DNA of 64,000 nucleotides from Patescibacteria group bacterium (lineage in GTDB: Bacteria; Patescibacteriota; Patescibacteriia; JAXHNJ01). Where the stretch lies: contig JAXHNJ010000002.1 of the NCBI GenBank assembly GCA_034520665.1, positions 282,303 to 346,302 of the forward strand. The letters run 5' to 3'. Of the stretch, positions 1-39,854 are shown piece after piece. The notes under the pieces are model-generated. The model saw only the letters and a list, made by a program, of their open reading frames with translations. It was not told where the DNA came from and did not search any database. Made by a program: the position numbers and the translations under genes. Position 1 is the stretch's first letter. Each line of letters opens with the position of its first letter.

Positions 1-1784
1 TAATTTTTACTTTATTTCTATTGGGAGCAAGTTTTTTAATCGGAATGGAGCAAACTTCAGCCGCAGAAAAAACCGTTATATACTTTTTCTGGGGTGAGGG
101 CTGTCCTCACTGCGCCGTGGAAAAACCATTTTTAGAAGAAATGGAACAAAAGTATCCCGAGCTGGAGGTTAAAATGTTTGAGACCTGGAAGAACTTGGAC
201 AACGCCGAATTATTTCAAAAAGTAGCCGCCGCTTATGGAATTCAAGCCCGAGGAGTACCGACAACTTTCATTGGCGACTTTGAGCCAATAGTCGGTTATG
301 CCGACTATATGGCCGATGATATTGAAGATAAAATTAAAGATTGTATTGAAAACAGCTGTGTTAACCCTGGAGTAAAGGCTGGGATTGAAGAAGAGACAAA
401 TACAGAGCCAACAACTTCTTCCGTTATTCCAACCAAAGAATCCAACCAAGAAGAAGAGATTGATTTCCAGCCAGAGCAAAACCAAGATAAGATTTGCCTG
501 CACTTATTTTACAAAGAAGATTGTCCTCAATGCTCGAATATAACTAATTTTCTCCAGAATCTGGAGAAAGAATACAATCTGACTATAAATAAGCACGATA
601 TTGGGACTGAAGAAGAGAATCTTTTATATCAAACCTTTAAAGATAAATATGGATTAGTAACAGGCGCTTATCCAATTATATTTTTAGGTAACAACTATTA
701 CATAGGCGATAAAGCCATTAAAGATCATCTAGAAAAAGAAATAATTCGGTGTGAAACAGAGGCTTGTATTTGCCCCTTAGAAAACATTAAAGGCCTTACT
801 CCTTTCTTACCCCAATCAACAGATATTACTCCTGAGAAACAGGAAAAACTAAAATTACCATTTGTCGGCGAGATTGATATTTCTTCCATGCCACTTTTTT
901 TGACAACCGGTATCATCGCTTTTGTGGATGGTTTTAATCCCTGCTCTTTGTGGCTAATTGCCTTTCTTTTGGGAATTGTGATTAATTCTGGTTCAAGAAA
1001 GAAAATATTTTTGGTCGGTACAACCTTTCTTTTGGTAACCACCACTGTTTACGGACTGTTTATGGTAGGGCTTTTAAATGTGTTTTTATATATTGGCTAC
1101 TTAAGATGGATTCAAGTTGCGGTTGCCTTATTAGCTTTGATTTTTGCTCTTGTAAATATTAAAGACTATTTTTGGTATAAAAAAGGTTTATCTTTTACTA
1201 TTTCTGATAAGTATAAGCCAAAAATATTTAAAGATGTACGAGGCATCATGAAAAAAGATAAATCAACCTGGGGCATGATGCTAGCTACAGCTGCTATGGC
1301 TCTGGGCGTAGTGCTGGTTGAGCTTCCCTGTACAGCTGGTTTTCCAGTAATTTGGACTAATATAATTGCCCAACATCATATACAAGGAATAGCGTTTGCT
1401 TTGCTTTTAGCCCTCTATCTATTGATTTATCTTTTAGACGAGGTAGTGGTTGTAGGAGCCGCCACTTTGACATTAAAAGCCAGTCGTTTTGAAGAAAAAC
1501 ACGGGCGTATCCTTAAGCTTATCGGTGGTATGATTATGTTGGCCTTGGCCCTGGTAATGTTTATTAAGCCGGACTTAATGAATAATATAAGCACTGCTTT
1601 ATTAATTTTTGCCATGGCCATAGCTGTTTCTTTCTTACTTATTTTTATTCATCGTAAAATTTTACCAAAATTTGGTATAAAAATTGGCACGGAAGAAAAT
1701 TTATTAACACCTGAAGCATCAAAAGAAGGTGAAGAAAATAATACTGACGAAAAAAATAATATTATTAACAAAAATAAGGAATAA
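1..1784 (+). CDS. Two thioredoxin-fold domains (CPHC, CPQC) fused to a CcdA/DsbD-like membrane thiol-disulfide transporter. It is 5'-truncated by the window edge.
   Basis: The reading frame is open back to position 3. The in-frame residues there (IFTLFLLGASFLIG) look like a signal peptide or TM helix. The CGCPHC and DCPQC motifs are present. The C-terminal multi-TM region has NPCS and LPCTAGFP cysteine motifs typical of CcdA/DsbD-beta. Confidence 0.6.
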   Translation, partial: IFTLFLLGASFLIGMEQTSAAEKTVIYFFWGEGCPHCAVEKPFLEEMEQKYPELEVKMFETWKNLDNAELFQKVAAAYGIQARGVPTTFIGDFEPIVGYADYMADDIEDKIKDCIENSCVNPGVKAGIEEETNTEPTTSSVIPTKESNQEEEIDFQPEQNQDKICLHLFYKEDCPQCSNITNFLQNLEKEYNLTINKHDIGTEEENLLYQTFKDKYGLVTGAYPIIFLGNNYYIGDKAIKDHLEKEIIRCETEACICPLENIKGLTPFLPQSTDITPEKQEKLKLPFVGEIDISSMPLFLTTGIIAFVDGFNPCSLWLIAFLLGIVINSGSRKKIFLVGTTFLLVTTTVYGLFMVGLLNVFLYIGYLRWIQVAVALLALIFALVNIKDYFWYKKGLSFTISDKYKPKIFKDVRGIMKKDKSTWGMMLATAAMALGVVLVELPCTAGFPVIWTNIIAQHHIQGIAFALLLALYLLIYLLDEVVVVGAATLTLKASRFEEKHGRILKLIGGMIMLALALVMFIKPDLMNNISTALLIFAMAIAVSFLLIFIHRKILPKFGIKIGTEENLLTPEASKEGEENNTDEKNNIINKNKE

Positions 1785-1787
1785 CTT

Positions 1788-2195
1788 ATGACAAATAATA
1801 ATTTACCGAACAATTTACTTTATAACCAAGATTATTCATGGGCGCGCATCGAGAATAACACGGCGGTGTTGGGTGTGATTAAACCGGCGGCAGATAAGGT
1901 AAAAGAATTTGTATTTATTAAACTTCCCCAGAAAGGACAGAGACTTAAAAAAGGGGAAACTTATGTTTCCTTGGAAGCACTTAAATGGAGCGGACACTTA
2001 GGAAGTCCCCTTTCCGGAGAAATAACTGAAGTTAATGACCCGTTGTTTGATGAACCGTCTATTATTAACAAAGACCCTTATGGTGAGGGCTGGATTGCCA
2101 AGATTAAAATTTCCAATCAAGAAGAGGTTAAAAAATTAATAAAAGCCGATAAAACCCAAAAATGGGTAGAGTCGGACCTGGCTAAAAATAAATAA
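1788..2195 (+). CDS. gcvH: Glycine cleavage system H protein (lipoyl carrier)
   Basis: The lipoyl-lysine motif VSLEALKWSG and the DPYGEGW signature are present. It starts 4 nt after the upstream stop. Confidence 0.8.
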   Translation: MTNNNLPNNLLYNQDYSWARIENNTAVLGVIKPAADKVKEFVFIKLPQKGQRLKKGETYVSLEALKWSGHLGSPLSGEITEVNDPLFDEPSIINKDPYGEGWIAKIKISNQEEVKKLIKADKTQKWVESDLAKNK

Positions 2196-2214
2196 TAATT
2201 AATAATAAAATTTT

Positions 2215-2661
2215 ATGATAAAAAAAATCGGATTATTATTCTTAGTAGTAGCAGCTTTGCTTGTCTTTACGGGCTGCTCTTCAACCGAACAGAATAACGA
2301 TCAAACAAACAATATTATGCCGTCAGACGGTGCCACAGCTAACGGCAAAGTAGTTATATATTTCTTCTGGGGTGAAGGCTGTCCTCACTGCGCCGTGGAA
2401 AAGCCATTTTTAGAAGAAATGGAGCAAAAGTATCCGGAGCTGGAGGTTAAAATGTTTGAGACCTGGAAGAACCCGGACAACGCCGAATTATTTCAAAAAG
2501 TAGCAGCCGCTTATGGAATTCAGGCCCGAGGAGTGCCGACAACTTTTATCGGTGATTTTGAACCGATTGTCGGTTTTGCCGATTATATGAAAGAGGATCT
2601 TGAAAGCAAAATAAAAAATTGTTTGGAACGCGACTGTGTTGATCCCGGTTCTAAACTATAA
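2215..2661 (+). CDS. Thioredoxin-fold lipoprotein, a paralog of the first domain of the 1-1784 protein
   Basis: It has a signal peptide with an LVFTGCSS lipobox and a WGEGCPHC motif. Its DNA is near-identical to 69-312. Confidence 0.75.
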   Translation: MIKKIGLLFLVVAALLVFTGCSSTEQNNDQTNNIMPSDGATANGKVVIYFFWGEGCPHCAVEKPFLEEMEQKYPELEVKMFETWKNPDNAELFQKVAAAYGIQARGVPTTFIGDFEPIVGFADYMKEDLESKIKNCLERDCVDPGSKL

Positions 2662-2707
2662 ACAACTACTTTTAATCAGGATTTTGATTCGTTTTAAATT
2701 CTAAAAT

Positions 2708-4045
2708 ATGGATAAACAAAAAATAGTTATCATCGGCGGTGGAGCCGCCGGCACCACTTGCGCCTTTGAACTGAGGAAGCTCGACAAAGAGGCGGAGATA
2801 ACCATAGTAGAGAAGACAGGAAACCTAGAATATTCTCCCTGCGCCCTGCCTTATGTTTTGGCCGGGGAGATAAATTCCTTTGATGATATTTTTATTTTCC
2901 AAGCATCTGATTATAAAAATAATAACATCAATATCCTCTTAGACACTGAGGTTACAGCCATAAACAAAAAGGCAAAAAAGATAAGTTATGTTAGTGATAG
3001 TAAAAAGGGAGAGCTTACCTATGATAAATTGGTTTTAGCCACCGGAAGCGTTTCTAAATTTCCTTCTATCTCAGGTCTTGATAAAGCCAAGCCTTTTGCT
3101 CTAAAAAATTTATCTGATGCTAAAAATATTTCAAAAAATATCAAGTCTAAAAGTAAGTCTGTTATTGTCGGAGCTGGGTTAGTGGGCCTGGAATTGGCCG
3201 TGGCTTTAAAAAATCAGGGGGAAAAAGTTTCGGTAGTAGAAAGGCAAAATCGTCCTTTACCGGCAATTTTAGACAAGGATATGAGCGGTCAGCTTGAGCA
3301 GTATTTAACTGATTTGGGAGTGGAATTGTTTTTTAATACAAATATCACAAAAGTAGAAGAGGGGAAGCTTTATTTTCAAGAAGATTATCTCAGCTTTGAC
3401 AAGCTTTTTGTTTGTATCGGAATAGAAGCAAATACTGCCTTGGCCCATCAGGCCGAGTTGAAATGCGAAGAGGCTATTGAAGTAAATGATAGCTTACGGA
3501 CTTCGGATGATAATATTTACGCATGCGGTGATTGCGTTTTTTCTATTGAGTTAAATACCAATAAAAAAGTGCTTAGCCAGCTTGGGACTATAGCGGTTCG
3601 TCAAGGCAAAGTAGTAGCTCATAATATCTTAGGCCAAAAAGAAAAAGCCCCTTTAGTAGTGAATAATACTATTACCAAGATAGGTGAACTATTCGTAGGT
3701 TCAGTGGGTTTGAGCTTAGAAAAAGCGCGACAAGAAAACATAGAAGTCGTAACAGCTAAATACTCTGGTGAGGTCAGATCTGAATATTACCCACCCTCCA
3801 GCCTGATTACAGTTAAGTTGATTTCAGATAAGAAAGGGAAATTACTCGGAGGTCAGATATTGGGCCGAGAAGAAGTGGTTGGAAGGATAAATTTACTTTC
3901 TCTGGCAATTGGAAAAGGAATGACCTTGGACGATTTAATTAGCAATGAGACTTGTTATAATCCGGCCTCAGCCCCCATCAACGAACCGATAAGCATAGTG
4001 GCTGAAATTGTTAAGAAAAAAATAAAGTTTTCTCTTAAAAAATGA
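2708..4045 (+). CDS. Pyridine nucleotide-disulfide oxidoreductase of the CoA-disulfide reductase / NADH oxidase family
   Basis: It carries the FAD motif GGGAAG and the single redox cysteine motif SPCALPY. A second Rossmann motif, GAGLVG, is present. It is 445 aa. Confidence 0.75.
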   Translation: MDKQKIVIIGGGAAGTTCAFELRKLDKEAEITIVEKTGNLEYSPCALPYVLAGEINSFDDIFIFQASDYKNNNINILLDTEVTAINKKAKKISYVSDSKKGELTYDKLVLATGSVSKFPSISGLDKAKPFALKNLSDAKNISKNIKSKSKSVIVGAGLVGLELAVALKNQGEKVSVVERQNRPLPAILDKDMSGQLEQYLTDLGVELFFNTNITKVEEGKLYFQEDYLSFDKLFVCIGIEANTALAHQAELKCEEAIEVNDSLRTSDDNIYACGDCVFSIELNTNKKVLSQLGTIAVRQGKVVAHNILGQKEKAPLVVNNTITKIGELFVGSVGLSLEKARQENIEVVTAKYSGEVRSEYYPPSSLITVKLISDKKGKLLGGQILGREEVVGRINLLSLAIGKGMTLDDLISNETCYNPASAPINEPISIVAEIVKKKIKFSLKK

Positions 4046-4884
4046 ATTTGCCTGATTGGATTAAAATAGGAAAATACGATAAAAAAGAATATTTAAAAAC
4101 TTTAAATATTATAAATGAAAATAAACTAACCACGGTTTGTTTGGAGGCAAATTGCCCCAACCGTTATGAATGTTTTGCTAATGGCACAGCCACTTTTATG
4201 ATTTTGGGTGATGTTTGTACCAGAAATTGTCGTTATTGTAATATAAAAAAAGGTCAACCTAAGGCACTTGATCCGACCGAGCCGGAAAAAATTTCGGTTG
4301 CCATTAAAAAGATGGGTTTAAAATATGCGGTGGTAACTTGCGTAACCAGAGATGATTTGCCAGATGGCGGCGCTGATCAATTTGCTAAAACGATCAAGAC
4401 AATTAAAAAAAATAATCCGGGTTGTAGGATGGAAGTTTTAATCTCTGACCTACAAGGTAATTGGCAAGCGCTTAAAAAAATAATCAAAGCCAAGCCGGAT
4501 GTAATAAATCATAATTTAGAAGCAGTTAAAGATATTTTTGCTTTAGTCAGACCCAAAGGTAATTATAAGTTATCTTTAAAACTTTTGAAAAAAATAAAAG
4601 AATTCGCACCGGAAATAAAAACAAAATCCGGTTTTATGCTTGGTCTTGGTGAGAATGACAAACAAATTGCCGAAACACTTAATGATTTAAAAAAAGGTGG
4701 CTGTGATATCGTAACCATTGGACAATATTTACAGCCGAGTCCGCAACATTTTGCAGTAAAAAAATATTATAATCCCGAAGAGTTTAAAAGGATAGAGTCT
4801 ATTGCTAAAAAAATCGGTATTAAACATGTTTCTGCCGGTCCTTTGGTTAGGAGTTCTTATCAAGCTAACATTATGTATAAATAA
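4042..4884 (+). CDS. lipA: Lipoyl synthase
   Basis: The auxiliary cluster motif CLEANCPNRYEC and the radical-SAM motif CTRNCRYC are both present. Confidence 0.9.
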   Translation: MNLPDWIKIGKYDKKEYLKTLNIINENKLTTVCLEANCPNRYECFANGTATFMILGDVCTRNCRYCNIKKGQPKALDPTEPEKISVAIKKMGLKYAVVTCVTRDDLPDGGADQFAKTIKTIKKNNPGCRMEVLISDLQGNWQALKKIIKAKPDVINHNLEAVKDIFALVRPKGNYKLSLKLLKKIKEFAPEIKTKSGFMLGLGENDKQIAETLNDLKKGGCDIVTIGQYLQPSPQHFAVKKYYNPEEFKRIESIAKKIGIKHVSAGPLVRSSYQANIMYK

Positions 4885-4888
4885 AAAT

Positions 4889-5644
4889 ATGAAAACCTGG
4901 AGACTTATAAAATCTATCACTGATAATGGCGCCAGACAGATGGCCATTGATGAAGCCATACTTACAGCACGAATAAAAAATAAAGTCCCCAATACTTTAC
5001 GCTTTTTTACTTGGAAACCGACCTGCGTAACAATCGGCTTTTTTCAAAATTTAGAAGAAGAGATCGATTTTATCAAAACTCGGTCTAGGGGCATAGACGT
5101 AGTTAGAAGATATACGGGCGGAGGCGCGGTTTTACATGAGCATGAACTAACTTATTCTCTAACCATCTCAGAAAAAGATGTTTCTTCTGATATAGTTGAA
5201 TCTTATAAAGAGATCTGCGCCGGAATAATTGAAGCCTTGTTTTCTCTTGGTATAAAAGCAGAATTCAAACCCATAAATGATATTATTGTTGGTAATAAAA
5301 AAATATCAGGCAATGCTCAGACTAGAAAGTCAGGCGTGGTGTTACAGCATGGTACAATACTTTTGGATCTGGATCTTAAAAAAATGTTTTCCCTGTTAAA
5401 GATCCCTGACGAAAAAATTAAGGATAAAATGATAAAAGCGGCCAAAGAGCGAGTAACCTCGTTAAAAAACGAACTAGGAAAAAGCGTTGCCAATAAGGAA
5501 ATAGAAAAGGCGCTTATTTATGGATTTGAAAAAATGTTTAATATAAAAACTGAAGTTGGAGAACTTACTCCCCAGGAATTAAAGCATGCCGAAAAATTAT
5601 ATAAAGAAAAGTATACTAATAATAAATGGACTAATTGGCGATAA
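4889..5644 (+). CDS. lplA: Lipoate-protein ligase, catalytic N-terminal domain (BPL/LPL)
   Basis: The motifs RRYTGGGAVLHEHELTYS and ISGNAQ...LQHGTILLDLDL are present. I place the start at ATG 4889, just after the lipA stop. The track's earlier start overlaps lipA. Confidence 0.8.
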   Translation: MKTWRLIKSITDNGARQMAIDEAILTARIKNKVPNTLRFFTWKPTCVTIGFFQNLEEEIDFIKTRSRGIDVVRRYTGGGAVLHEHELTYSLTISEKDVSSDIVESYKEICAGIIEALFSLGIKAEFKPINDIIVGNKKISGNAQTRKSGVVLQHGTILLDLDLKKMFSLLKIPDEKIKDKMIKAAKERVTSLKNELGKSVANKEIEKALIYGFEKMFNIKTEVGELTPQELKHAEKLYKEKYTNNKWTNWR

Positions 5645-5645
5645 T

Positions 5646-5918
5646 ATGAAAAAAATAATTTATAAAGCGCCTAACGGTAAGTTATTGCGCCTGCAACTTG
5701 ATGCGGAAGATAATATTATAAGGAATATAAAAATAGCCGGTGATTTTTTTATTTACCCGGAAGAAGCGATTTGTGAGATTGAAAAATTTTTAGTCGGAAA
5801 AAAAATTAATAATAATATAGAAAGTACGTTGAAGAAATTTTTATTAAACAACAATATAATTATAATAGGATTCAAACCGACAGATATTTTTAATGCACTA
5901 TCAAATAATAATAAATAA
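5646..5918 (+). CDS. Lipoate-protein ligase C-terminal domain as a separate polypeptide (LplB-like)
   Basis: The motifs YKAPNGKLLRLQLD and NIKIAGDFF match the LplA C-domain. The ATG lies 2 nt after the lplA stop. Confidence 0.65.
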   Translation: MKKIIYKAPNGKLLRLQLDAEDNIIRNIKIAGDFFIYPEEAICEIEKFLVGKKINNNIESTLKKFLLNNNIIIIGFKPTDIFNALSNNNK

Positions 5919-6067
5919 AATAGCCACAGTTTTTTTAAATAATATTACCAGCAAATAGGCCCGATTCTCGCATTTAATCGGCGGTCTCTTGATGCTAATA
6001 ATCGGCTTGATGCTTATTTTCAAGCCCGGTTAGCTGATGTTTGGCTAAAAATTTCAAAATAAAAAAA

Positions 6068-6104
6068 CCAACGGCCAATATATTAAAGCCGCTGTTTGTT
6101 TTGT
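6068..6104 (+). terminator. Putative intrinsic terminator of the lipoylation operon
   Basis: An imperfect hairpin CCAACGGCC...GCCGCTG is followed by TTTGTTTTGT. Confidence 0.3.
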
Positions 6105-6264
6105 ATTATTTAAGCTACTCGGGTCGCCTCCGATAAAAAGTTTTAGTGGCGGTGGGACTGGCCCCGCTATTGCGCGGGGTAAAGATTCTTACCTTATTTA
6201 TTCCCAGAGCGGAGAGGACTAGCCCGCCTGCGGCGGATTTTCGAGACTCTCACTTTAAAAGTAA

Positions 6265-6354
6265 TGGCGGTGGGACTGGGATTCGAACCCAGGATACCCG
6301 TAAAGGTATACATGCACTCCAAGCATGCGCCTTCGACCACTCGGCCATCCCACC
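6265..6354 (-). tRNA. tRNA-Ser(GGA), type II with a long variable arm; CCA is encoded
   Basis: The reverse complement folds as a cloverleaf: acceptor GGTGGGA/TCCCACC, anticodon loop TTGGAGT, T-arm CTGGGTTCGAATCCCAG, 3' GCCA. Confidence 0.85.
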
Positions 6355-6478
6355 TCAATAAGCGATAAACCAACAGCCATAAGCGACAAGCCATAAGCTA
6401 ACAATATTATACCATAGCAAATTAAAGGCAAAAAGAAAAGCCTTTTTTGCTTTTTAAAAAAGACTTTTCTTGAATTTT

Positions 6479-8881
6479 TTATTTTTTGTTTTTAAGCTTT
6501 TTTTCTGTTTTCAATATATCCAAGGTTGTTTTAATCACTGTATCCGGATTCAGCGACATCGAGTCAATACCTTCCTTGACTAAAAAACGAGCAAATTCGG
6601 GGTAGTCTGAAGGCGCCTGGCCACAGATACCAATTTTACACTTATTCTTCTTGGCTATTTTAATTACCTGACTAACCATTCTTTTGACGGCTTCGTTTCT
6701 TTCATCATAAATATGAGCCACTAAGGATGAGTCACGGTCTACTCCTAAAGTCAATTGAGTTAAATCATTAGAGCCGATAGAAAAGCCGTCAAATATCTTA
6801 GCAAACTCTTCAGCCATAATTACATTAGAAGGGATTTCGCACATGACATAAACTTCTAAACCATCTTGACCTTGTTTCAGGCCATATTTTTTCATAATCT
6901 TAATCACATTTTTTCCCTCTTCCACTGTCCGGCAAAAGGGCACCATAACTTTGAGATTTTTCAGCCCCATCTCTTTTCTTACTTTTTTTAAGGCCTGGCA
7001 CTCCAGTTTAAAAGCGGCTTCATAATTTTTATCGTAATAACGTGAAGCACCGCGCCAGCCGATCATGGGATTGGACTCTTCCGGCTCAAATTCTGAGCCG
7101 CCGATTAAGTTAGCGTATTCATTGGATTTAAAGTCAGACAAACGGACAATTACGTCCTTGGGATAAAAAGCGGCCGCAATCATAGCCACACCCATAGCTA
7201 ATTTGTCTATAAAAAATTCACTTTTATTTTTATAGTCCCGGGTAATTTTTTCAATTTCCTTCTTAGCCTTTTTATCTTTTAATTTTTTATAATTCAGCAA
7301 AGCCAAGGGATGAATTTGAATAAACGAATTAATAATAAATTCTTCCCGGGCTAGCCCGACACCATCGTTAGGAATAAAAGAAGAGTCAAAAGCAATATCC
7401 GGACTACCAATATTCATCATAATTTTGGTTTTTGGTCTTTTTATTTTTTTAAGCCTAGTTTTTTTAACTTTAAAATCAGCCCGACCTTGATAAACAAAGC
7501 CTTTCTCGCCTTCAGCACAGGAAACAGTCACCGTCTGGCCGTTTTTTATTTTTTTAGTGGCTCGACCAGCCCCAACAATACAGGGAATACCCAATTCTCG
7601 GGAAACAATAGCCGCGTGACAGGTACGTCCGCCCTGATCAGTAACAATAGCACTGGCTATTTTCATAATTGGCTCCCAGTCCGGATCAGTCATATCAGTG
7701 ACCAGAATTTGGCCTTTTTTAAAGCTGTGAATATCCTTAGTATTTAAAATTACATTAGCCTCACCTGAAGCAACTTTAGTACCGACCGGTGCTCCCTCAA
7801 TAATTTTTTTACCTTTTTTCTTAATTACATAAGTTTCCAGAATATTTTTGTCTTTTTGTGACTGCACTGTTTCCGGCCGAGCCTGGACTATAAAAAGTTC
7901 ATTAGTCTGGCCGTCTTTAGCCCACTCAATATCCATTGGTTTTTGATAATGTTTTTCAATAGCCACAGTCCATTTAGCTAAAGTTAATATTTCTTGATCT
8001 TCTATAGAATATTTTCTTCTCTTAGCCGTGCTCACATTAACATTTTTAGTGGATTTGCCCTGACCAGAGGTATAAATCATTTTTAAGGCCTTGGTGCCCC
8101 GCTGGCGAGAAATAATAGCCTTATAGCCTTGCTCTAAAGTTGGTTTAAAAACATAAAATTCATCCGGATTAACATTACCCTGGACTACATTTTCTCCCAA
8201 ACCATAAGCACTGGTAATATAAACCGCGTTTTCAAAACCACTTTCAGTATCAATACTAAATATCACTCCCGAAGAAGCTTTGTCCGAGCGCACCATTTTC
8301 TGGACGCCAATAGATAAAGCAATTTCAAAATGGTCAAAGCCTTTGTCTTCACGGTAGGAAATGGCTCGGTTGGTAAAAAGAGAAGCAATACATTTTTTAC
8401 AATATTTTAATAAATCTTTTTGGCCCCGGATATTTAAATAAGTGTCCTGCTGACCGGCAAAAGAGGCGTCTGGCAGATCTTCAGCTGTAGCTGATGAACG
8501 CACGGCCACGTCAACATTCTTTTTATATTCTTTTTCCATTTTTTTATAGGCTTTGATAATAGCCTCGTTAAGCTCGGCTGGAAAATCAGACTTTAGAATT
8601 AATTGGCGCACTTTTTTACCCCGAGCCATTAAGTTTCTCACATTATGAGTATTTAAATCAGACAGAATCTCTTTTATCTCATCTCTAATACCGCTTTCTT
8701 TAAGAAAAAAGCGATAGGCTTCAGCCGTGACCGCAAAACCATTAGGCACATTAATGCCCCTCTTAGTTAGAGTGGCGTACATCTCCCCTAAAGAAGCGTT
8801 TTTACCACCCACCAAAGGTACGTCCTTATTACGCAAATCTTTAAACCATAAAATTAACTCTTTATTTTTCTTTTTTTTCAT
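6479..8881 (-). CDS. ppsA: Phosphoenolpyruvate synthase (pyruvate, water dikinase)
   Basis: It is 800 aa and has the PEP-utilising histidine motif GGRTCHAAIVSRELGIPCIVG. The N-terminal ATP-grasp domain and C-terminal PEP-binding domain are present. Confidence 0.85.
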   Translation of the reverse strand: MKKKKNKELILWFKDLRNKDVPLVGGKNASLGEMYATLTKRGINVPNGFAVTAEAYRFFLKESGIRDEIKEILSDLNTHNVRNLMARGKKVRQLILKSDFPAELNEAIIKAYKKMEKEYKKNVDVAVRSSATAEDLPDASFAGQQDTYLNIRGQKDLLKYCKKCIASLFTNRAISYREDKGFDHFEIALSIGVQKMVRSDKASSGVIFSIDTESGFENAVYITSAYGLGENVVQGNVNPDEFYVFKPTLEQGYKAIISRQRGTKALKMIYTSGQGKSTKNVNVSTAKRRKYSIEDQEILTLAKWTVAIEKHYQKPMDIEWAKDGQTNELFIVQARPETVQSQKDKNILETYVIKKKGKKIIEGAPVGTKVASGEANVILNTKDIHSFKKGQILVTDMTDPDWEPIMKIASAIVTDQGGRTCHAAIVSRELGIPCIVGAGRATKKIKNGQTVTVSCAEGEKGFVYQGRADFKVKKTRLKKIKRPKTKIMMNIGSPDIAFDSSFIPNDGVGLAREEFIINSFIQIHPLALLNYKKLKDKKAKKEIEKITRDYKNKSEFFIDKLAMGVAMIAAAFYPKDVIVRLSDFKSNEYANLIGGSEFEPEESNPMIGWRGASRYYDKNYEAAFKLECQALKKVRKEMGLKNLKVMVPFCRTVEEGKNVIKIMKKYGLKQGQDGLEVYVMCEIPSNVIMAEEFAKIFDGFSIGSNDLTQLTLGVDRDSSLVAHIYDERNEAVKRMVSQVIKIAKKNKCKIGICGQAPSDYPEFARFLVKEGIDSMSLNPDTVIKTTLDILKTEKKLKNKK

Positions 8882-9941: not shown

Positions 9942-11603
<1,662 letters not shown>

Positions 11604-11687
11604 TTAGTTTATTAGTTAAATAGTTAATTATTTTTTAATCCATTTCAGCACCTTCAACATTTTCAGCACTTTCAACGCTTTAAACGT

Positions 11688-11978
11688 TTACTCAATTACC
11701 GCCACAATATCTTCTTCAGAAACCACTAAAAAATCCTCGCCATCAACTTTGACTTCATCTGGACTGTATTTTTTGAATAAAACTTTTTGTCCGGTCTTTA
11801 TAGAGATCGGCGCGTGCCGGCCGTTATCTAAGATTTTGCCGGGACCAACCGCTATTACTTCACCTTTTTCTGGTTTTTCTTTTTCCGCTGTGTCCGGTAG
11901 AACAATACCAGACTGGGTTACTTCCTCCTCTTCTAAGGGTTTGATAATGACTTTGTCACCTAAGGGTTTAAGATTCAT
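11688..11978 (-). CDS. groS: Co-chaperonin GroES
   Basis: It is 96 aa and begins MNLKPLGDKVIIKPLEEEE...GIVLP. Confidence 0.9.
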   Translation of the reverse strand: MNLKPLGDKVIIKPLEEEEVTQSGIVLPDTAEKEKPEKGEVIAVGPGKILDNGRHAPISIKTGQKVLFKKYSPDEVKVDGEDFLVVSEEDIVAVIE

Positions 11979-12020
11979 ATTTTTTTTGCTTAATTATTAG
12001 CAGTATTTAATGATATCTAA

Positions 12021-12047
12021 TTAGCACTCATTCGTCAAGAGTGCTAA
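12021..12047 (-). promoter_or_regulatory. CIRCE operator (HrcA site) upstream of groES
   Basis: The site TTAGCACTC-N9-GAGTGCTAA is a perfect match to the CIRCE consensus. Confidence 0.9.
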
Positions 12048-12115
12048 TTATTATCTTGTTAGCTTATTTTAAGGCAATTTTTAGTCTTTGTCAAGGAAAT
12101 TCAAGTTATCCACAA

Positions 12116-13084
12116 TTATTCAAATAAACCTTTAATTTTGTCATAAAATCGTTTTCGATACTCCTCTCTTCTATCATTTTCATGAAATTTTAAAACTGAA
12201 TCAGAAATAACTACCTTATTATTATCTTGATACATCACGCTATTTTTATTTTTTTCCATTTTTTTTCTTTGGCCATCCCTAATAAAATTATTCAGCCAGG
12301 GGCCTAAGTTAGGAATTAAAAATAAAGTTTCAAAGACACTCTTAACTAACGAGGTAAGACTGTCTTTTTTAATTATTTTTTTATTTTCAGATAAAAAAGC
12401 ATTAGGCAAAAATTCTTTTACCCATTTGTTTTCTTTTTGGATTTTTTTATGAAAATTAGCAGCATCGTAAAGAGGTGTTAATTGATCAACCCAAAAAGTA
12501 AAATAGGGGTCTTTATCTTGCAAAAGCAAAGGTTTAAAATCAAGGGCTTCACTACTTAGATAAAAACTCAAACAAATCTTGTTTTTTATTTTATCTTTAT
12601 ACCGTCTTAAGCCCAACATATGAACCAACCAAGTAACAAAAAAACGGGCTGTAAACAGATGGCCAGGTTCAGTGACTATAAAAAAATCAATATCACTTTC
12701 TTTTTTGGCGTTATCAAGAGCTAAATTATTGCAAACCGCTATATAATTAACAAAAGGGGCCATTTTTAAATAATTAACCGCTGTTTTGGCTTTTTCCCAT
12801 TTCTTTTTATCATAATCCCTTCTCTCTTTCCTGGTCTCTACAATCTCTCTTCGTCCTTTTAGAAAATAATAGCCTTCATCTTCTTCAATTATATTTTTCA
12901 ATTTTTCACTCATTTCCAAAACTTCAAGAACATCATTTAAATCTTTTTTAAAATCTTTTTCCTCTTTGTCAATATAAAGCCACCGCCAAATTTCTTCAGC
13001 GGTCAAAGGATAATCAAAAATATCATACCAACAGATAGTTTTGAGAATAGATTTTTCTATTTGACTAAATTTGTTATCTTCCAT
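12116..13084 (-). CDS. Hypothetical protein with a Pol-beta-type nucleotidyltransferase fold
   Basis: The nucleotidyltransferase-like S...DxD motif is present as KKESDIDFFIV. Confidence 0.4.
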   Translation of the reverse strand: MEDNKFSQIEKSILKTICWYDIFDYPLTAEEIWRWLYIDKEEKDFKKDLNDVLEVLEMSEKLKNIIEEDEGYYFLKGRREIVETRKERRDYDKKKWEKAKTAVNYLKMAPFVNYIAVCNNLALDNAKKESDIDFFIVTEPGHLFTARFFVTWLVHMLGLRRYKDKIKNKICLSFYLSSEALDFKPLLLQDKDPYFTFWVDQLTPLYDAANFHKKIQKENKWVKEFLPNAFLSENKKIIKKDSLTSLVKSVFETLFLIPNLGPWLNNFIRDGQRKKMEKNKNSVMYQDNNKVVISDSVLKFHENDRREEYRKRFYDKIKGLFE

Positions 13085-13171
13085 ATTATTATCCTTAAAT
13101 AAGCACCTTTGATTGACTAGTACCTTTTATTATACTTTTTCTGCTCTCAAAACACAAAAAAGGAGGTTTTT

Positions 13172-13375
13172 ATGAGTAATAGAAAAGCGGCAGCAAAAAA
13201 TTCAATAAAAATAATAGAGTTAATAGACGAACATCTGGATCAAGAAAAAGCAAAAATTTTTATTGAACGCAGAAATTTATTTACTGAAAAACAAGTAAAT
13301 CACATAAATAATTGTTCTATCTGCCAAGAAAGAATAAAAAGAGCCAAAGAAGATATTGCTTGGCACGAAAAATAA
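13172..13375 (+). CDS. Small hypothetical protein (67 aa)
   Basis: A strong RBS (AAGGAGG, 5 nt before the ATG) precedes it. A terminator follows. Confidence 0.5.
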   Translation: MSNRKAAAKNSIKIIELIDEHLDQEKAKIFIERRNLFTEKQVNHINNCSICQERIKRAKEDIAWHEK

Positions 13376-13396
13376 ATTATTTTTTCAAACTTTAAT

Positions 13397-13431
13397 CAGC
13401 GCTGGTTTAACCTCCAGCGCTATTTTTTTTA
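13397..13431 (+). terminator. Intrinsic terminator overlapping the uvrA 3' end
   Basis: The hairpin CAGCGCTGG-N8-CCAGCGCT is followed by TATTTTTTTT. Confidence 0.55.
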
Positions 13432-16313
13432 TTTAAATATTTTTTTAAATACTGCCCCGTGTAGCTTTTTTTATTTTTAGCTACTTGTTTAGGTGTACCA
13501 ATGGCTACAATTTCACCGCCCTGGTCACCGCCCTCAGGCCCTAAATCTACAATCCAATCAGCTGACTTAATAACATCCAGGTTATGTTCAATAATTAAGA
13601 CCGTATTGCCTTTATCAACCAGTTTATTAATTACTCCTAATAATCTCTTAATATCATCAAAGTGAAGGCCGGTAGTCGGCTCATCTAAAATATAAAGAGT
13701 CTTGCCAGTAGCCCTTCTGGAGAGTTCAGTAGCCAGTTTCACCCGCTGGGCTTCACCACCGGACAAAGTAGTGGCTGACTGACCCAAGTGAATATAGCCC
13801 AAACCAACATCAAATAAAGTTTTCAGTTTTTTCTTGATAGCTGGTATTTTATTAAAAAATTCCAGAGCCTCTTCCACAGTCATATCCAAAACATCAGCAA
13901 TATTCTGGCCATGATAATGAATTTCCAGAGCCTGCTGATTATAACGCCGGCCCTTGCATTCCTCACACTCAACATAAACATCCGGCAAAAAATTCATCTC
14001 AATCTTTTTCATGCCGTCACCCTGGCAAGCTTCACAGCGACCACCTTTAACATTAAAACTAAACCGACCTGGAGTATAACCTCTTATTTTAGCTTCCGGT
14101 AATTTAGAAAAAAGATCTCTAATATAGGTAAAAACACCGGTATAAGTGGCCGGATTAGAGCGTGGCGTCCGGCCGATCGGCGACTGATCAATATGGATAA
14201 CTTTGTTAAGATGGCCCAATCCCTTGATCTCTTTATACTTACCAGGTAGATCCTTAGCTCTATAAAAATGCTGAGATAAAGCCTTAGCTAAAATATCAAT
14301 CATTAGAGTTGATTTACCTGAACCAGAAACACCGGTAATACAGACAAATTTACCCAGCGGTATGTCCACATCTATTTCTTTTAAATTAAACTCCTCGGCT
14401 CCTTTGATAGTAATTTTCTTGCCATTGCCTTGATGGTATTTCTTAGGAATTTTAATTTCTTTTTTGCCGGATAAATACTGCCCCGTTAAAGACTTAGCTG
14501 ATTTTTTTATTTGAGCCGGCGTACCACTACCTACAATTTTTCCGCCGTGATCACCAGCCCCGGGGCCAATATCAACTAAATGGTCCGCTTCCAGCATGGT
14601 AGTTTCATCATGCTCAACAATAATCACGGTATTTCCGAGGTCTCTTAATTTTTTTAGAGTTTTAATTAACTTTTTATTATCCCGCTGATGTAAGCCAATA
14701 GAAGGCTCATCTAATATATAAATAACCCCGACCAAAGAAGAGCCAATTTGAGTGGCTAGTCTGATACGTTGAGCTTCCCCACCAGCTAGAGTCGATGAAG
14801 AACGATCTAGAGTCAAATAATCCAAACCAACATTATGTAAAAAGGCCAGTCTTTCTCTTATTTCTTTTAATATTTGTTTGGCAATTTTATTTTGTTTTTT
14901 ACTTAATTTTAATTCTTTATTTTTGACTCCCTTTTTACCTAACTTATCAAAAAACTTCCGGCTCTTTTCAATAGGCATGGAAACAATATCATAAATATTC
15001 TTGCCACCAACACTCACCGCTAAACTGGCTGGTTTAAGGCGTTTACCCTGACAAGTGGGACAGGGATAGATACGCATATACTTTTCAATTTCCCGACGCA
15101 CATAATCAGAATCTGTTTCTTTGTGCCGGCGCATCAGATTGGGTATCACACCCTCATAAGTAGTATAATAGTCACCGTCAAAACGTCTAGAAGAATAACT
15201 AGACTTGTATTTTTTATCACCCGTGCCGGATAAAATTATATCCAGCTGTTTTTTGGTTAAATCCTGCACCGGAGTATCAGTGGAAAAATTATTTTCCTCA
15301 GCTACTGTTCTTAAAATTTGAGTGTACCAACCCTTGTTGGAAGCCGTTCTGGACCAGGGACGAATAGCTCCCTGACTAATAGTTAGTCTTTTATTGGGAA
15401 TAACCAGCTCCGAGTCAACCACCAGCTTAGTACCCAATCCGGTACACTCCGGGCAAGCCCCGTGGGGACTGTTAAAAGAGAAATTCCTCGGCTCTAAATC
15501 TTTTAAATTTATATTACAGTGGGGACAAGCCAGATGTTCAGAAAAAATTATATCTTCATTTTCTTCCACTTTATGAATAATAACTAGACCCTCACCTAAA
15601 TCCAGAGCTGTTTCTAAAGAATCGGCCATTCTTAATTTGGTTTCTTTTTCATCTTCAATTTTTTCCTCGCCTTCTTTTACTTTAAGCCGGTCAACCACTA
15701 CTTCTAAATTATGTTTTTTATTCTTATCAACCTCTAGATCTTCTGCTTCTTCAATTGGATAAATATCTCCGTCAAAACGCACCCGCACATATCCGGATTT
15801 TCTGATATCTTTCATTATATTTTTATGCTCTCCTTTTTTATCCTGAATCAAGGGAGCTAAAATCATTATCTTAGTTTCTTTAGGTAATTCAAATATTTTT
15901 TCAACTATCTGATCAATAGTCTGTTGGGTAACCACCCGGCCACATTGAGGGCAATGAGGAATACCGACTCGGGCAAATAAAAGACGGAGATAATCATAAA
16001 TCTCCGTGACCGTACCGACAGTAGAGCGAGGGTTATGGGAAGATGATTTCTGATCAATAGAAATAGCCGGCGACAAACCTTCAATCTGGTCAACATCAGG
16101 TTTATCCATTAATTCTAAAAACTGCCGGGCGTAAGCTGATAATGACTCAACATATCTTCTTTGACCTTCGGCATAAATAGTATCAAAAGCCAGAGAAGAT
16201 TTACCAGAACCAGATATACCAGTAATCACTACCATTTTATCCCGAGGCAGCTCTAAACTGACATTTTTAAGGTTGTGAACCCGGGCTCCCCTGATTGTAA
16301 TTTTATCAGACAT
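13407..16313 (-). CDS. uvrA: Excinuclease ABC subunit A
   Basis: It is 968 aa with two ABC modules ([18 protein letters not shown]) and zinc-finger cysteines. Confidence 0.95.
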
Positions 16314-25567: not shown

Positions 25568-26464
25568 ATGTTTGAAAATCAAAACCAACCAAAAAAACCT
25601 CAAAGCCCGCCTGCTAGTTTACCTAACCAAGGCCAGCCAGACAATAAGCCAAAATCTAATCTACAAAAACCGGCTGATCTAAAACAGTCTCAAAGCCATA
25701 CAAAGTCAGAAAAAAACAGCCAAAACACTGATAATAGTGATATATCGGCCAAAATTGCTGAATTAAATAAAATAAGCCACGGCGGAAAAAAGAAAATAAC
25801 TATTATTACTGTAGCTATAATAGTTATTATTGGTTTAATCATTGGTGCTATTTATCTTTTTCAAAACTTAAACAGTCCAGAAAAGGAAGAAATAGTGGTT
25901 ACAGGCTCCAATAATATTAATAATAATGGTAATTTAAGTGTTAATAAAGACCTTAATCTAAATACCAACGCTAATACCAATAATAATTCAAATAATACTA
26001 ACACTTATATCAACACTAGCAATCCCAATAGCGACTCAGATAACGACGGCCTTATAAACAAAAAAGAATTATATTATGGCACCTCACCAACAAAAAAAGA
26101 CACTGACGGAGATGGCTACAGCGATTTAAATGAAATAGAAAATAAATTTAATCCTTTGGGAAGCGGTAAATTAACGGCCGAAGATTTTTATATTTATTGT
26201 GTTAATAATTTAAATGATAATTTAGAAGAAAAATACCAGGACTTAATCGGCAGGAATAATATCAATACTTTTTGTCAGGCCGGACAGGAGCTTATTTCTG
26301 AATATGGCTTAGGTAAAAATACTATCAGCCATACCGCTTATTTAACCAAGTGCCAGGAAAAATTTACTGAAGAGAATTCTAACACCAGTAATTCCATTTT
26401 AATCAATAACTGCCAGAATGAATTAAGTCCGATAATTATTGATTTTTTAAGCCCGGGTAATTAA
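25568..26464 (+). CDS. Anchored Asn/Ser-rich low-complexity protein with thrombospondin-type-3-like calcium-binding repeats
   Basis: A TM helix is followed by an N-rich tract. The repeats read DSDNDGLINKKE and DTDGDGYSDLNE (DxDxDG). Confidence 0.6.
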   Translation: MFENQNQPKKPQSPPASLPNQGQPDNKPKSNLQKPADLKQSQSHTKSEKNSQNTDNSDISAKIAELNKISHGGKKKITIITVAIIVIIGLIIGAIYLFQNLNSPEKEEIVVTGSNNINNNGNLSVNKDLNLNTNANTNNNSNNTNTYINTSNPNSDSDNDGLINKKELYYGTSPTKKDTDGDGYSDLNEIENKFNPLGSGKLTAEDFYIYCVNNLNDNLEEKYQDLIGRNNINTFCQAGQELISEYGLGKNTISHTAYLTKCQEKFTEENSNTSNSILINNCQNELSPIIIDFLSPGN

Positions 26465-33249: not shown

Positions 33250-34488
33250 ATGAAATATTTAAACAAAACTGATAATAAAGTGGCTCGGGCTATTGCCCAG
33301 GAGATAAAAAGACAGCAGACTGGACTGGAATTAATCCCTTCAGAAAACTTTGTTTCTATGTCAGTCCTGGAAGCCTTGGGTAGTGTTTTAACTAATAAGT
33401 ATTCAGAAGGCTACCCCGGTAAGCGATATTACGGCGGTACCCAGAATGTTGATACTACCGAGCAACTAGCTATTGACCGAGCTAAAAAACTTTTCGGGGC
33501 CGAGCATGTTAATGTCCAGCCTTTGTCTGGCGCTCCGGCCAATGTAGCTGTTTATTTTGCCTTGCTTGAGCCAGGTGATACAGTTCTAGGCATGGATCTC
33601 TCGCACGGCGGGCATCTCACTCACGGCCATCCGGTTACTTATATGTCTAAGCTTTATAACTTTGTCAGATATAAAACTACTCCGGCCGGCGAAATTGATT
33701 ATCAGGAAGTAGAAAAACTGGCTAAAGAACACAAGCCAAAAATAATTCTCTGCGGCTATTCAGCTTACTCTCGGGAAATTGATTATCAAAAATTTAAATA
33801 TATTGCTGATCAGGTTAATGCTATTACCATGGCTGATATCGCTCATATCGCCGGCTTGATCGCGGCTGGCCAGATGAATAATCCAGTACCTCTTTTTGAT
33901 ATAGTAACCACTACCACTCATAAAACTCTGCGTGGCCCCCGCGGCGGTATGATTATGTGCCAGGAAAAATGGGCTGAGAAAATTGATAAGGCAGTTTTTC
34001 CCGGTTTCCAGGGCGGGCCGCATGAGCATAATATTGCCGCCAAAGCGGTCGCTTTTGGTGAAGCTTTATTGCCCTCTTTCAAAGAATACGCCCGGCAAAT
34101 TAAGAAAAATGCTAAAGTGCTTTGCCAAACTCTTAAAAACGAGGGGTTAAAAATTTGTTTTAACAAAACTGAAAATCACCTTATTTTATCGGACCTGACT
34201 CCCCTTGGCCTAGCCGGTAAAGAAGCACAAAATGTTTTGGACGAAGTTAAGATTACCTTGAATAAAAATATGATTCCGGATGACCCCAGAAAACCCATGG
34301 ACCCCTCTGGCATCCGTTTGGGTACGCCGGCTCTGACTACCCGCGGTTTTAAAGAAAAAGACATGAAAATTGTCGGCGAAACTTTAGCCCAAGTGCTTAA
34401 AAATCCAAAAAGCGATTCCATTAAAAAACAAGCCTTAACCGTAGTGGCTGATTTAACTAAAAAGCACCCGCTTTATCCAGAACTATAA
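33250..34488 (+). CDS. glyA: Serine hydroxymethyltransferase
   Basis: The motifs [26 protein letters not shown] and the PLP-lysine region [14 protein letters not shown] are present. Confidence 0.95.
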
Positions 34489-39760: not shown

Positions 39761-39854
39761 AATTATCTTGACTTAATAAATACAATTTTATATATTTAAC
39801 CTTGGTGGCTTTTAAAAAAGCCGCTTTTTTTATTTGTTTTTGAAAAAATCACAA

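Follow-up and report, generated by a model that had tools for sequence, protein, structure and literature searches.

Ultrasmall bacteria of the Candidate Phyla Radiation (CPR) and archaea of the DPANN group have, to our knowledge, a stripped-down metabolism and mostly lack the enzyme complexes that use lipoate, and no published reason was found for the retention of GcvH, LipA and LplA in some of them. The question of what a lipoyl protein does in such a cell is raised by a stretch of 64,000 nucleotides from a Patescibacteria genome (GenBank assembly GCA_034520665.1, contig JAXHNJ010000002.1, positions 282,303 to 346,302 of the forward strand; hereafter the window), whose bases 1-5918 are filled by seven close-packed open reading frames (ORFs) on the plus strand. 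We consider, with moderate confidence, that these genes form a self-contained thiol-disulfide relay built on a dedicated lipoylated GcvH. The gene identities, taken from Pfam and NCBIfam profile matches, are as follows.

1-1784, plus strand: TrxTM, a membrane protein with two thioredoxin (Trx) domains and a CcdA-like domain; ORF and Trx domains, N-terminus cut by the window edge.
1788-2195, plus strand: GcvH-family lipoyl carrier of a distinct clade; PF01597, E 1e-34.
2215-2661, plus strand: exported single-domain thioredoxin; ORF and thioredoxin domain.
2708-4045, plus strand: FAD/NAD(P)H flavoprotein of the CoADR/Nox/Npsr family (CoADR, CoA-disulfide reductase); Pyr_redox_2 and dimerisation domains.
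4042-4884, plus strand: lipoyl synthase LipA; NF004019, TIGR00510 and cluster motifs.
4889-5644, plus strand: catalytic (large) subunit of the lipoate ligase LplA ('LplA-N'); PF21948, NF053750, likely start ATG 4889.
5646-5918, plus strand: small subunit LplB ('LplA-C'); NF053749, PF10437, likely start ATG 5646.

The sequence-only reading, an earlier annotation made from the letters of this DNA, had described seven tightly packed genes with gaps between -4 and +46 nt. Both points were borne out, since all seven ORFs are present at their places and the intergenic gaps amount to +3, +19, +46, -4, +4 and +1 when ATG 4889 and ATG 5646 are taken as the likely start codons. These two starts follow from comparison with orthologues, the mechanical ORF of the LplA catalytic subunit opening at TTG 4802.

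The bond between the membrane protein and GcvH is strongly conserved. A first scan, seeded with the membrane protein, fetched 80 genome loci, and a second, seeded with an alignment of operon GcvH proteins, gave 49 metagenome contigs; adjacency was counted over those pooled, non-redundant loci in which GcvH is preceded by 600 nt or more of sequence. Among the 28 closest loci of the first scan, 20 hold GcvH, always directly downstream of the membrane-protein gene, and the usual order thereafter is exported thioredoxin, flavoprotein, LipA, LplA and LplB. In the pooled set, the Trx-membrane gene lies directly upstream on the same strand in 52/53 loci of the GcvH clade (exception L119/L120), and this adjacency persists down to 26-36% identity with the membrane protein of the window. 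Of the 27 loci for which at least 6 kb of downstream sequence was available, 25 have LplA, 22 LplB, 22 the flavoprotein and 21 LipA, so that TrxTM, GcvH and LplA(B) are nearly always present as a near-constant core. Conversely, the 52 distant loci of the first scan (L029-L080), mostly labelled Chloroflexota and encoding one Trx domain with the same membrane domain at 38-48% identity, lack GcvH, LipA and LplA within 10 kb and show no conserved neighbouring gene, which makes them a clean negative control. Together with seven closer ones, about 59 unlinked TrxTM homologues were inspected, and none has GcvH within 10 kb. The conservation of gene order in relatives, on which the sequence-only reading had staked its proposal, is therefore well supported across two domains of life. 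The same order in dozens of independent contigs is more than chance, and mere kinship of the contigs was rejected as an explanation because the association holds at 26-36% identity in both domains, while homologues with 38-48% identity occur without it.

The operon occurs in metagenome-assembled genomes (MAGs) labelled Patescibacteria, Falkowbacteria, Woesearchaeota and Undinarchaeota, and also on contigs with archaeal neighbours (S8e, CDC48, RFC). As several 'TPA_asm' records carry implausible taxon labels (e.g., 'uncultured Gammaproteobacteria'), this distribution rests on clearly labelled MAGs and on flanking genes. For the window itself, rpoB and rpoC of bacterial type at 53.5-60.8 kb confirm a bacterial host. 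In a Woesearchaeota locus (L012), all seven proteins are 49-62% identical to those of the window, which points to a passage of the whole operon, as one unit, from one domain to the other.

The GcvH protein aligns with PF01597 over positions 1-121 of its 122 residues (E 1e-34), and its best matches in the Protein Data Bank are GcvH proteins, the nearest being that of T. maritima. Its lipoyl-lysine is K66 (1983-1985), within SLEALKWSGHLGSP, and no signal peptide was found, the protein being presumably cytoplasmic. The score against the TIGR00527 equivalog is below the cut-off (100.1 bits vs 115.85). Invariant columns among 15 orthologues include E63, K66, W67 and G69; around the lipoyl-lysine, E-x-x-K-W-x-G is invariant and K-W-S-G-H stands where the canonical GcvH motif has K-A-x-S-D/E. 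The operon GcvH proteins form a distinct clade with this signature.

Its modification can be accounted for by the genes downstream. LipA clearly exceeds the cut-offs of NF004019 (399 bits vs 203) and TIGR00510 (356 vs 310) and carries both the CX4CX5C motif of the auxiliary cluster and the CX3CX2C motif of radical SAM enzymes, whereas the LipS2 model gives 34 bits (cut-off 270). The lipoate ligase is of the two-subunit LplA-LplB type with separate catalytic and small subunits, the former matching PF21948 (E 5e-54) and NF053750 (E 1e-63), the latter PF10437 and the NF053749 equivalog (73.2 bits, cut-off 65). No LipL/LipM-type amidotransferase was recognised in the cluster, the octanoyltransferase model giving only 21 bits. 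The usual clients of lipoylation had been reported missing from the window by the sequence-only reading; this stands for GcvT, GcvP, Lpd and E2 among the 20 largest other ORFs, smaller ORFs not being covered by the scan. The neighbour clusters conserved around the 28 closest loci likewise contain none of the four.

The reading frame of TrxTM is open from window base 3, and its full length is represented by a 100% identical database protein of 604 aa (P0001), which stems from a 698-kb contig in a Patescibacteria MAG, opens with a signal/anchor peptide and is labelled 'conjugal transfer protein TraF'. The first gene had been described as encoding a signal peptide, two Trx domains and a membrane domain; the domains were recovered, but the gene is truncated by the window edge and the signal peptide is supplied by P0001. 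Two thioredoxin/glutaredoxin-like domains precede a polytopic membrane domain according to Pfam and NCBIfam, namely the distal exported domain Trx1 with CPHC (102-113) and the membrane-proximal domain Trx2 with CPQC (522-533). All members of the family have the membrane-proximal C-x-Q-C domain, and the distal one with CPHC can be missing; the best structural matches to the Trx domain include ScsC, with 30-31% identity. The family is very conserved, with 2,619 significant matches among the candidates scored. Its database names are inconsistent ('conjugal transfer protein TraF', 'glutaredoxin domain-containing protein', 'CcdA family protein', 'hypothetical') and probably wrong.

In an AlphaFold2 model, the membrane domain begins at about 849 and has seven predicted helices. 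It contains one cysteine in helix 1 (942-944, DGFNPC) and one in helix 4 (1329-1331, ELPCTAGFP), each beside a proline, and the motifs D-G-x-N-P-C and E-x-x-C-T-A-G-F-P are kept in all 112 of 112 homologues spanning both sites. The modelled helices are interrupted exactly at these two residues. No match was obtained to the Pfam families DsbD (PF02683) and DsbD_2 (PF13386), either with the whole protein at E<=0.01 or with the membrane domain alone at E<=10, and comparison of the membrane-domain alignment with neighbouring DsbD_2 proteins by hhalign gave a probability of 0.1. The fold is CcdA-like, the match being moderate. Thus, the former label 'CcdA/DsbD-like' finds no support in the sequence and holds by fold and by the two invariant membrane cysteines. 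A topology with the Trx domains outside and the conserved Lys-rich loops, including NIKDYFWYKKG..DKYKPK, inside is predicted from the signal peptide, the positive-inside distribution of Lys/Arg and the helix positions. By analogy, we infer that TrxTM carries electrons from a cytoplasmic dithiol to an extracytoplasmic thioredoxin fold.

The separate exported thioredoxin carries a CPHC motif at 2380-2391, and its signal peptide contains a lipobox-like FTGC (Cys21, 2275-2277). It is 84% identical in amino acids to Trx1 of TrxTM, and the two genes share a direct repeat of 296 nt (75-370 vs 2353-2648) with 87% nucleotide identity. On these identities, the two are paralogues, either recent duplicates or kept alike by gene conversion. 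Orthologues of the exported thioredoxin are either lipoproteins or signal-anchored and mostly have CPHC, which dominates both here and in the distal domain of TrxTM.

The flavoprotein (445 aa) matches PF07992 (Pyr_redox_2, E 5e-64) and the dimerisation domain PF02852 (E 4e-13). Its best NCBIfam model is the CoA-disulfide reductase TIGR03385, whose cut-off of 578.8 is not reached (313.5), and NF007123 gives 263 with a cut-off of 458. Its earlier assignment to the CoADR family consequently holds for the family and not for the equivalog; the protein is best filed, from its scores, as a family member only and not as CoADR itself. A single active-site cysteine, Cys45 (YSPCALPY, 2840-2842), has its equivalent in every operon-linked flavoprotein with a covered N-terminus and is absent from two unlinked paralogues. 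The nearest solved structures are 6pfz (E 2e-71), which we take to be the A. fulgidus persulfide reductase, the CoADR-RHD 3icr, the CoA-persulfide reductase 8a56, and 3ntd. A rhodanese domain was not found in the flavoprotein, which is shorter than these relatives (551-588 aa) and matches only their flavoprotein part. A second cysteine, Cys416 (ETCYNP, 3953-3955), aligns with an alanine in 6pfz (LAYAPP); it is kept in flavoproteins of loci with the exported thioredoxin and replaced by A-Y-S-P in loci with an AhpD-like gene. A role as ferredoxin reductase or helper of LipA was considered and ruled out, because all linked copies examined have the thiol-active cysteine and the gene is kept in loci without LipA (L100, L102, L108, L115).

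Between GcvH and LipA, the operon is modular. The slot after GcvH holds the exported thioredoxin, a protein of the AhpD/CMD family (about 115 aa) or DUF169. In at least 14 related loci, the AhpD-like gene lies between GcvH and the flavoprotein gene, and 16 of 17 copies show the AhpD signature E-x11-C-x-x-C-x3-H; in the window, no AhpD-like sequence was found anywhere, even at E<=10. The next slot holds the flavoprotein or, in six loci, a set of TusA, YeeE/YedE (Sulf_transp), DsrE, DsrF and DsrH, which occupies the exact flavoprotein position in L001, L003, L004, L006 and L011 and stands beside LipA in L028. Flavoprotein and sulfur relay were never found together (22 vs 3 of 27 loci, two loci having neither). 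The conserved neighbour clusters as a whole comprise ArsR, Thioredoxin_3, ArsP_1, ferredoxin, ArsF-like proteins, DsbD_2, TusA, Sulf_transp, DsrE/F/H, DUF169 and AhpD. DUF169 (COG2043, about 250 aa), a frequent insert ahead of the flavoprotein or LipA, lies directly after GcvH in L008, L028, L084, L086, L087, L091, L095, L096 and L104. The 725-kb contig L028 has two clusters 2.5 kb apart, TusA-Trx-YeeE-DsrEFH-LipA-LplA-LplB and TrxTM-GcvH-DUF169-LplA-LplB (2900-7500 and 9977-13700), and by this split its genome has two LplA-LplB pairs.

In the relay proposed here, Lys66 of GcvH would receive octanoate or lipoate from LplA-LplB, and LipA would add two sulfurs. The cytoplasmic CoADR-family flavoprotein would reduce the lipoyl disulfide with NAD(P)H and its active-site cysteine, after which the dihydrolipoyl arm would pass two electrons to the cysteine pair in helices 1 and 4 of the CcdA-like domain. 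The latter would reduce the fused membrane-proximal Trx domain (CxQC), and this domain in turn the two CPHC parts, distal domain and separate exported thioredoxin, which may hold surface proteins or small molecules reduced. Lipoyl-GcvH and the flavoprotein would then replace the thioredoxin and thioredoxin reductase of DsbD/CcdA pathways, and in related genomes the same GcvH hub would also feed a cytoplasmic AhpD-like CxxC protein. This scheme, with its single electron-transfer steps, its direction of flow, its substrates and a GcvH without a glycine-cleavage role, is a model set upon the observed gene identities, topology logic, CcdA-like fold, conserved cysteines and modular synteny. The AhpD-bearing variant is its strongest new support. 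In Mycobacterium tuberculosis, electrons pass from NADH via Lpd, DlaT and AhpD to AhpC, with AhpD being reduced by a lipoyl domain (PMC12028322; PMC12440151). By this precedent, the insertion of an AhpD-signature gene between the two speaks for GcvH and the flavoprotein working as a dithiol-reducing couple.

Several of its parts can be compared with known systems. With the CcdA/DsbD pathways (CcdA with pneumococcal Etrx-type lipoproteins, DsbD, ScsB-ScsC), the operon shares a polytopic protein with cysteines in helices 1 and 4 and a CcdA-like fold, as well as Trx-fold domains and a thioredoxin lipoprotein outside, ScsC being among the best Trx matches. In contrast to them, TrxTM stands outside PF02683 and PF13386 by sequence and has seven predicted helices, its constant neighbour is a lipoyl carrier that comes with lipoylation enzymes of its own and a CoADR-family flavoprotein instead of thioredoxin and thioredoxin reductase, and genes of cytochrome c maturation, Msr genes and copper genes were not seen here. 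The mycobacterial relay had been named as the sole precedent for a lipoyl domain that feeds a thioredoxin-like protein. This was too narrow, as H-proteins or lipoyl groups reportedly serve as dithiol reductants outside their metabolic complexes in the hydrogenosomal peroxide detoxification of Trichomonas (L-protein, H-protein, OsmC), in lipoyl-dependent Ohr and in the rerouting of E. coli lipoamide to glutaredoxin (works cited in PMC12440151), and LbpA is a further case. Those systems are said to differ in relying on a bona fide Lpd, together with peroxidases or glutaredoxins that are soluble, and in having neither a membrane step nor a dedicated LipA-LplAB operon. In the mycobacterial relay itself, as here, the genes of a flavoprotein, a lipoylated carrier and a CxxC protein stand together, and the AhpD signature recurs in loci related to the window. 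It differs in that its carrier is the E2 of a dehydrogenase complex and its flavoprotein is Lpd, whereas here the carrier is GcvH, the flavoprotein is of the single-cysteine CoADR type, the window has no AhpD, no AhpC was seen, and the proposed output would cross the membrane. AhpC or another peroxiredoxin was not recognised in the operon of the window, other loci not having been scanned systematically for it.

Two further systems use a GcvH-like protein outside glycine cleavage. LbpA of sHdr sulfur oxidation (Cao et al., 2018, PMC6067878) is a GcvH-like lipoate-binding protein with a dedicated ligase in its cluster; dihydrolipoamide dehydrogenase is linked in archaeal sHdr clusters, and nearby TusA and DsrE-like sulfurtransferases are shared with the variant loci only. 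Unlike these clusters, the operon described here lacks Hdr-like genes, encodes LipA instead of LipS1/LipS2 and a two-subunit LplA-LplB, is coupled to the Trx-CcdA-like membrane protein and is hosted by fermentative ultrasmall lineages, not by sulfur oxidisers. In Staphylococcus and Streptococcus, the GcvH-L/LplA2/SirTM operon likewise combines a second, non-glycine-cleavage GcvH with its own lipoate ligase and is tied to oxidative-stress resistance (PMC4518038, PMC12440151); sirtuin/macrodomain genes are absent here, while a membrane transporter and exported thioredoxins are absent there.

A number of findings weigh against the relay. The flavoprotein is not of the Lpd type with CxxxxC (TIGR01350, 138 bits vs a cut-off of 409), and its nearest solved relatives are persulfide and CoA-persulfide reductases instead of classical CoADRs. 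The membrane domain of TrxTM lacks a match to the DsbD family at the sequence level and its fold match is only moderate. GcvH clears the cut-off of the GcvH subfamily NF002270 (124.1 vs 117). A serine hydroxymethyltransferase is encoded in the window (33250-34488, plus strand, about 28 kb from the operon; PF00464, E 9e-159), so that the organism possesses glycine/serine and folate one-carbon metabolism. The oxidase DsbA likewise has CPHC, and this motif does not set the direction of electrons. No NAD(P)H-linked reductase is obvious within 10 kb in the six sulfur-type loci, and two more loci have neither module. As a whole, the relay model of the sequence-only reading gained from the conserved neighbourhood, the AhpD variant and the CcdA-like fold with two invariant cysteines, and lost from the kinship with persulfide reductases and from the exchange of the flavoprotein for a sulfur relay in six loci.

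The same two points, the TusA-YeeE-DsrEFH replacement and the kinship of the flavoprotein to persulfide reductases, make a sulfur-handling role, which the sequence-only reading had not foreseen, a live alternative and the main rival of the relay, though less probable than it. Lipoyl-GcvH would then be a persulfide-carrying arm like LbpA or DsrC, the flavoprotein an NAD(P)H persulfide reductase freeing H2S, TusA-DsrEFH (fed by YeeE) would bring or remove sulfur, and TrxTM would link this sulfane-sulfur hub to polysulfide, thiosulfate or persulfidated proteins outside. The sulfur genes sit in the exact slot of the flavoprotein and exclude it, the closest relative of the window (L004, 81% identity) is of the sulfur type, and 6pfz, 3icr, 8a56 and 3ntd are the nearest solved homologues of the flavoprotein. 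Precedents are LbpA in sHdr oxidation, where it is accompanied by ligases of its own, TusA and DsrE-like proteins, and the use of dihydrolipoate by rhodanese as a sulfane-sulfur acceptor (PMC6067878). Nevertheless, none of the conserved neighbour clusters is Hdr-like, the rhodanese domain known from persulfide reductases is missing from the flavoprotein, and AhpD-like and Trx partners with a CcdA-like fold are classic parts of electron transfer. Moreover, the sulfur module is a minority variant that is followed by LipA in each complete example, and it could therefore supply sulfur for lipoyl synthesis instead.

Clearly less probable is an inward, oxidative pathway as a quinone-independent counterpart of DsbA-DsbB, in which the CPHC thioredoxins would oxidise secreted proteins, electrons would pass via the membrane cysteines to lipoyl-GcvH, and the flavoprotein (with NAD+, E3-like) or persulfide sulfur would re-oxidise the carrier. 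It would suit the dominance of the DsbA motif CPHC in distal and separate thioredoxins, and it would explain the interchange of modules, as the flavoprotein and a persulfide carrier could both take electrons from dihydrolipoate. Known CcdA/DsbD proteins and CoADR-family enzymes act reductively, however, and the AhpD-like partners also indicate a reducing role. Hosts without electron transport chains, as is reported for Patescibacteria and DPANN (PMC7507113), would lack the quinones for DsbB or VKOR, which favours such a pathway; against it, protein dithiols are poorly oxidised by lipoyl (E0' -0.29 V, a value quoted in PMC6067878) or by NAD+.

Little probability is also given to ordinary lipoate metabolism beside unrelated envelope genes, with GcvH as the H protein of glycine cleavage or, as in Bacillus, as lipoyl-relay intermediate for an E2 elsewhere, and with the Trx genes merely co-transcribed. 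The subfamily score of GcvH, the canonical LipA and LplA-LplB and the serine hydroxymethyltransferase gene would fit this explanation; it is opposed by the reciprocal adjacency in 52/53 loci of two domains down to 26-36% identity, by the lack of GcvT, GcvP, Lpd and E2 in the two sets searched, by the lack of a LipL/LipM-type amidotransferase in the cluster and by the K-W-S-G-H signature. Finally, a function in arsenical or soft-metal handling, with the dithiol arm of GcvH binding or being shielded from trivalent arsenicals within an ArsR-controlled island, is very improbable: although such arsenicals bind dihydrolipoyl groups, relatives have ArsR, Thioredoxin_3, ArsP_1 and an ArsF-family protein beside DsbD_2 upstream of the operon, and the AhpD-like protein is nearest to arsenic-associated AhpD domains among NCBIfam models, no ArsC, ArsB/Acr3 or ArsM was recognised, the ArsR-like protein (one sequence, the representative of cluster c7) has ILCLL without Cys-Val-Cys at the ELCVCDL arsenite site of ArsR, DPANN versions have a different regulator and none of the upstream genes, and the upstream region is not within the window.

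This upstream set is conserved in L003 (2500-5300), L002, L004, L006, L013, L016 and L092. It consists of an ArsR-family regulator, Thioredoxin_3, an ArsP_1 permease, sometimes a 2x[4Fe-4S] ferredoxin, and an ArsF-family protein beside a DsbD_2 membrane protein, together with a secreted, Cys-containing protein ('c2', about 217 aa) that matches no family. In archaeal loci, a membrane-anchored winged-helix regulator (DUF7343/MarR-like) takes its place. In the window, the 3' end of the operon precedes convergent genes for tRNA-Ser and phosphoenolpyruvate synthase, and scans for promoters and terminators gave sites no more numerous than in shuffled sequence. Two further ORFs on the plus strand (25568-26464 and 35373-36863) carry bacterial thrombospondin type-3 (TSP3) repeats; their products are likely secreted or surface proteins and possible clients of an envelope thiol system. 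After a ychF-like GTPase gene, the Rfam 'Histone3' 3'-UTR stem-loop matches 39782-39827 on the minus strand (37.8 bits vs a gathering score of 34), which in a bacterium is probably a chance hairpin or a terminator.

The literature on GcvH, lipoate or glycine cleavage together with CPR, Patescibacteria, DPANN, thioredoxin or DsbD did not yield a description of this operon, subscription journals being mostly uncovered, and a survey of prokaryotic lipoate assembly makes no mention of Patescibacteria, CPR, DPANN or thioredoxin. The parts and the relay logic have precedents in CcdA/DsbD envelope pathways and in lipoyl-dependent CxxC relays. New, as far as found, are the constant pairing of a CcdA-like Trx fusion with a dedicated GcvH that has lipoylation enzymes of its own, the interchangeable flavoprotein, AhpD and sulfur modules, and the sharing of the operon between CPR and DPANN.

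In a wider sense, and with about even chances of being right, GcvH may act as a general dithiol hub in many Patescibacteria and DPANN, where it is possibly the only lipoyl protein of the cell. The modules around it would be interchangeable, the CcdA-like transporter would carry reducing power (or sulfane sulfur) to surface thioredoxins, and the whole would form an envelope system independent of thioredoxin reductase which has moved between domains as one operon. The interchangeable AhpD, flavoprotein and sulfur-relay modules make this hypothesis directly testable with purified proteins. If lipoyl-GcvH is indeed the cytoplasmic donor of the CcdA-like transporter, a lipoyl protein would for the first time be seen to feed a thiol relay across the membrane, and these organisms would maintain their surface thiols via NAD(P)H and a CoADR-type enzyme instead of thioredoxin reductase. 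A function would thereby be given to the very conserved, unannotated TrxTM family of membrane proteins.

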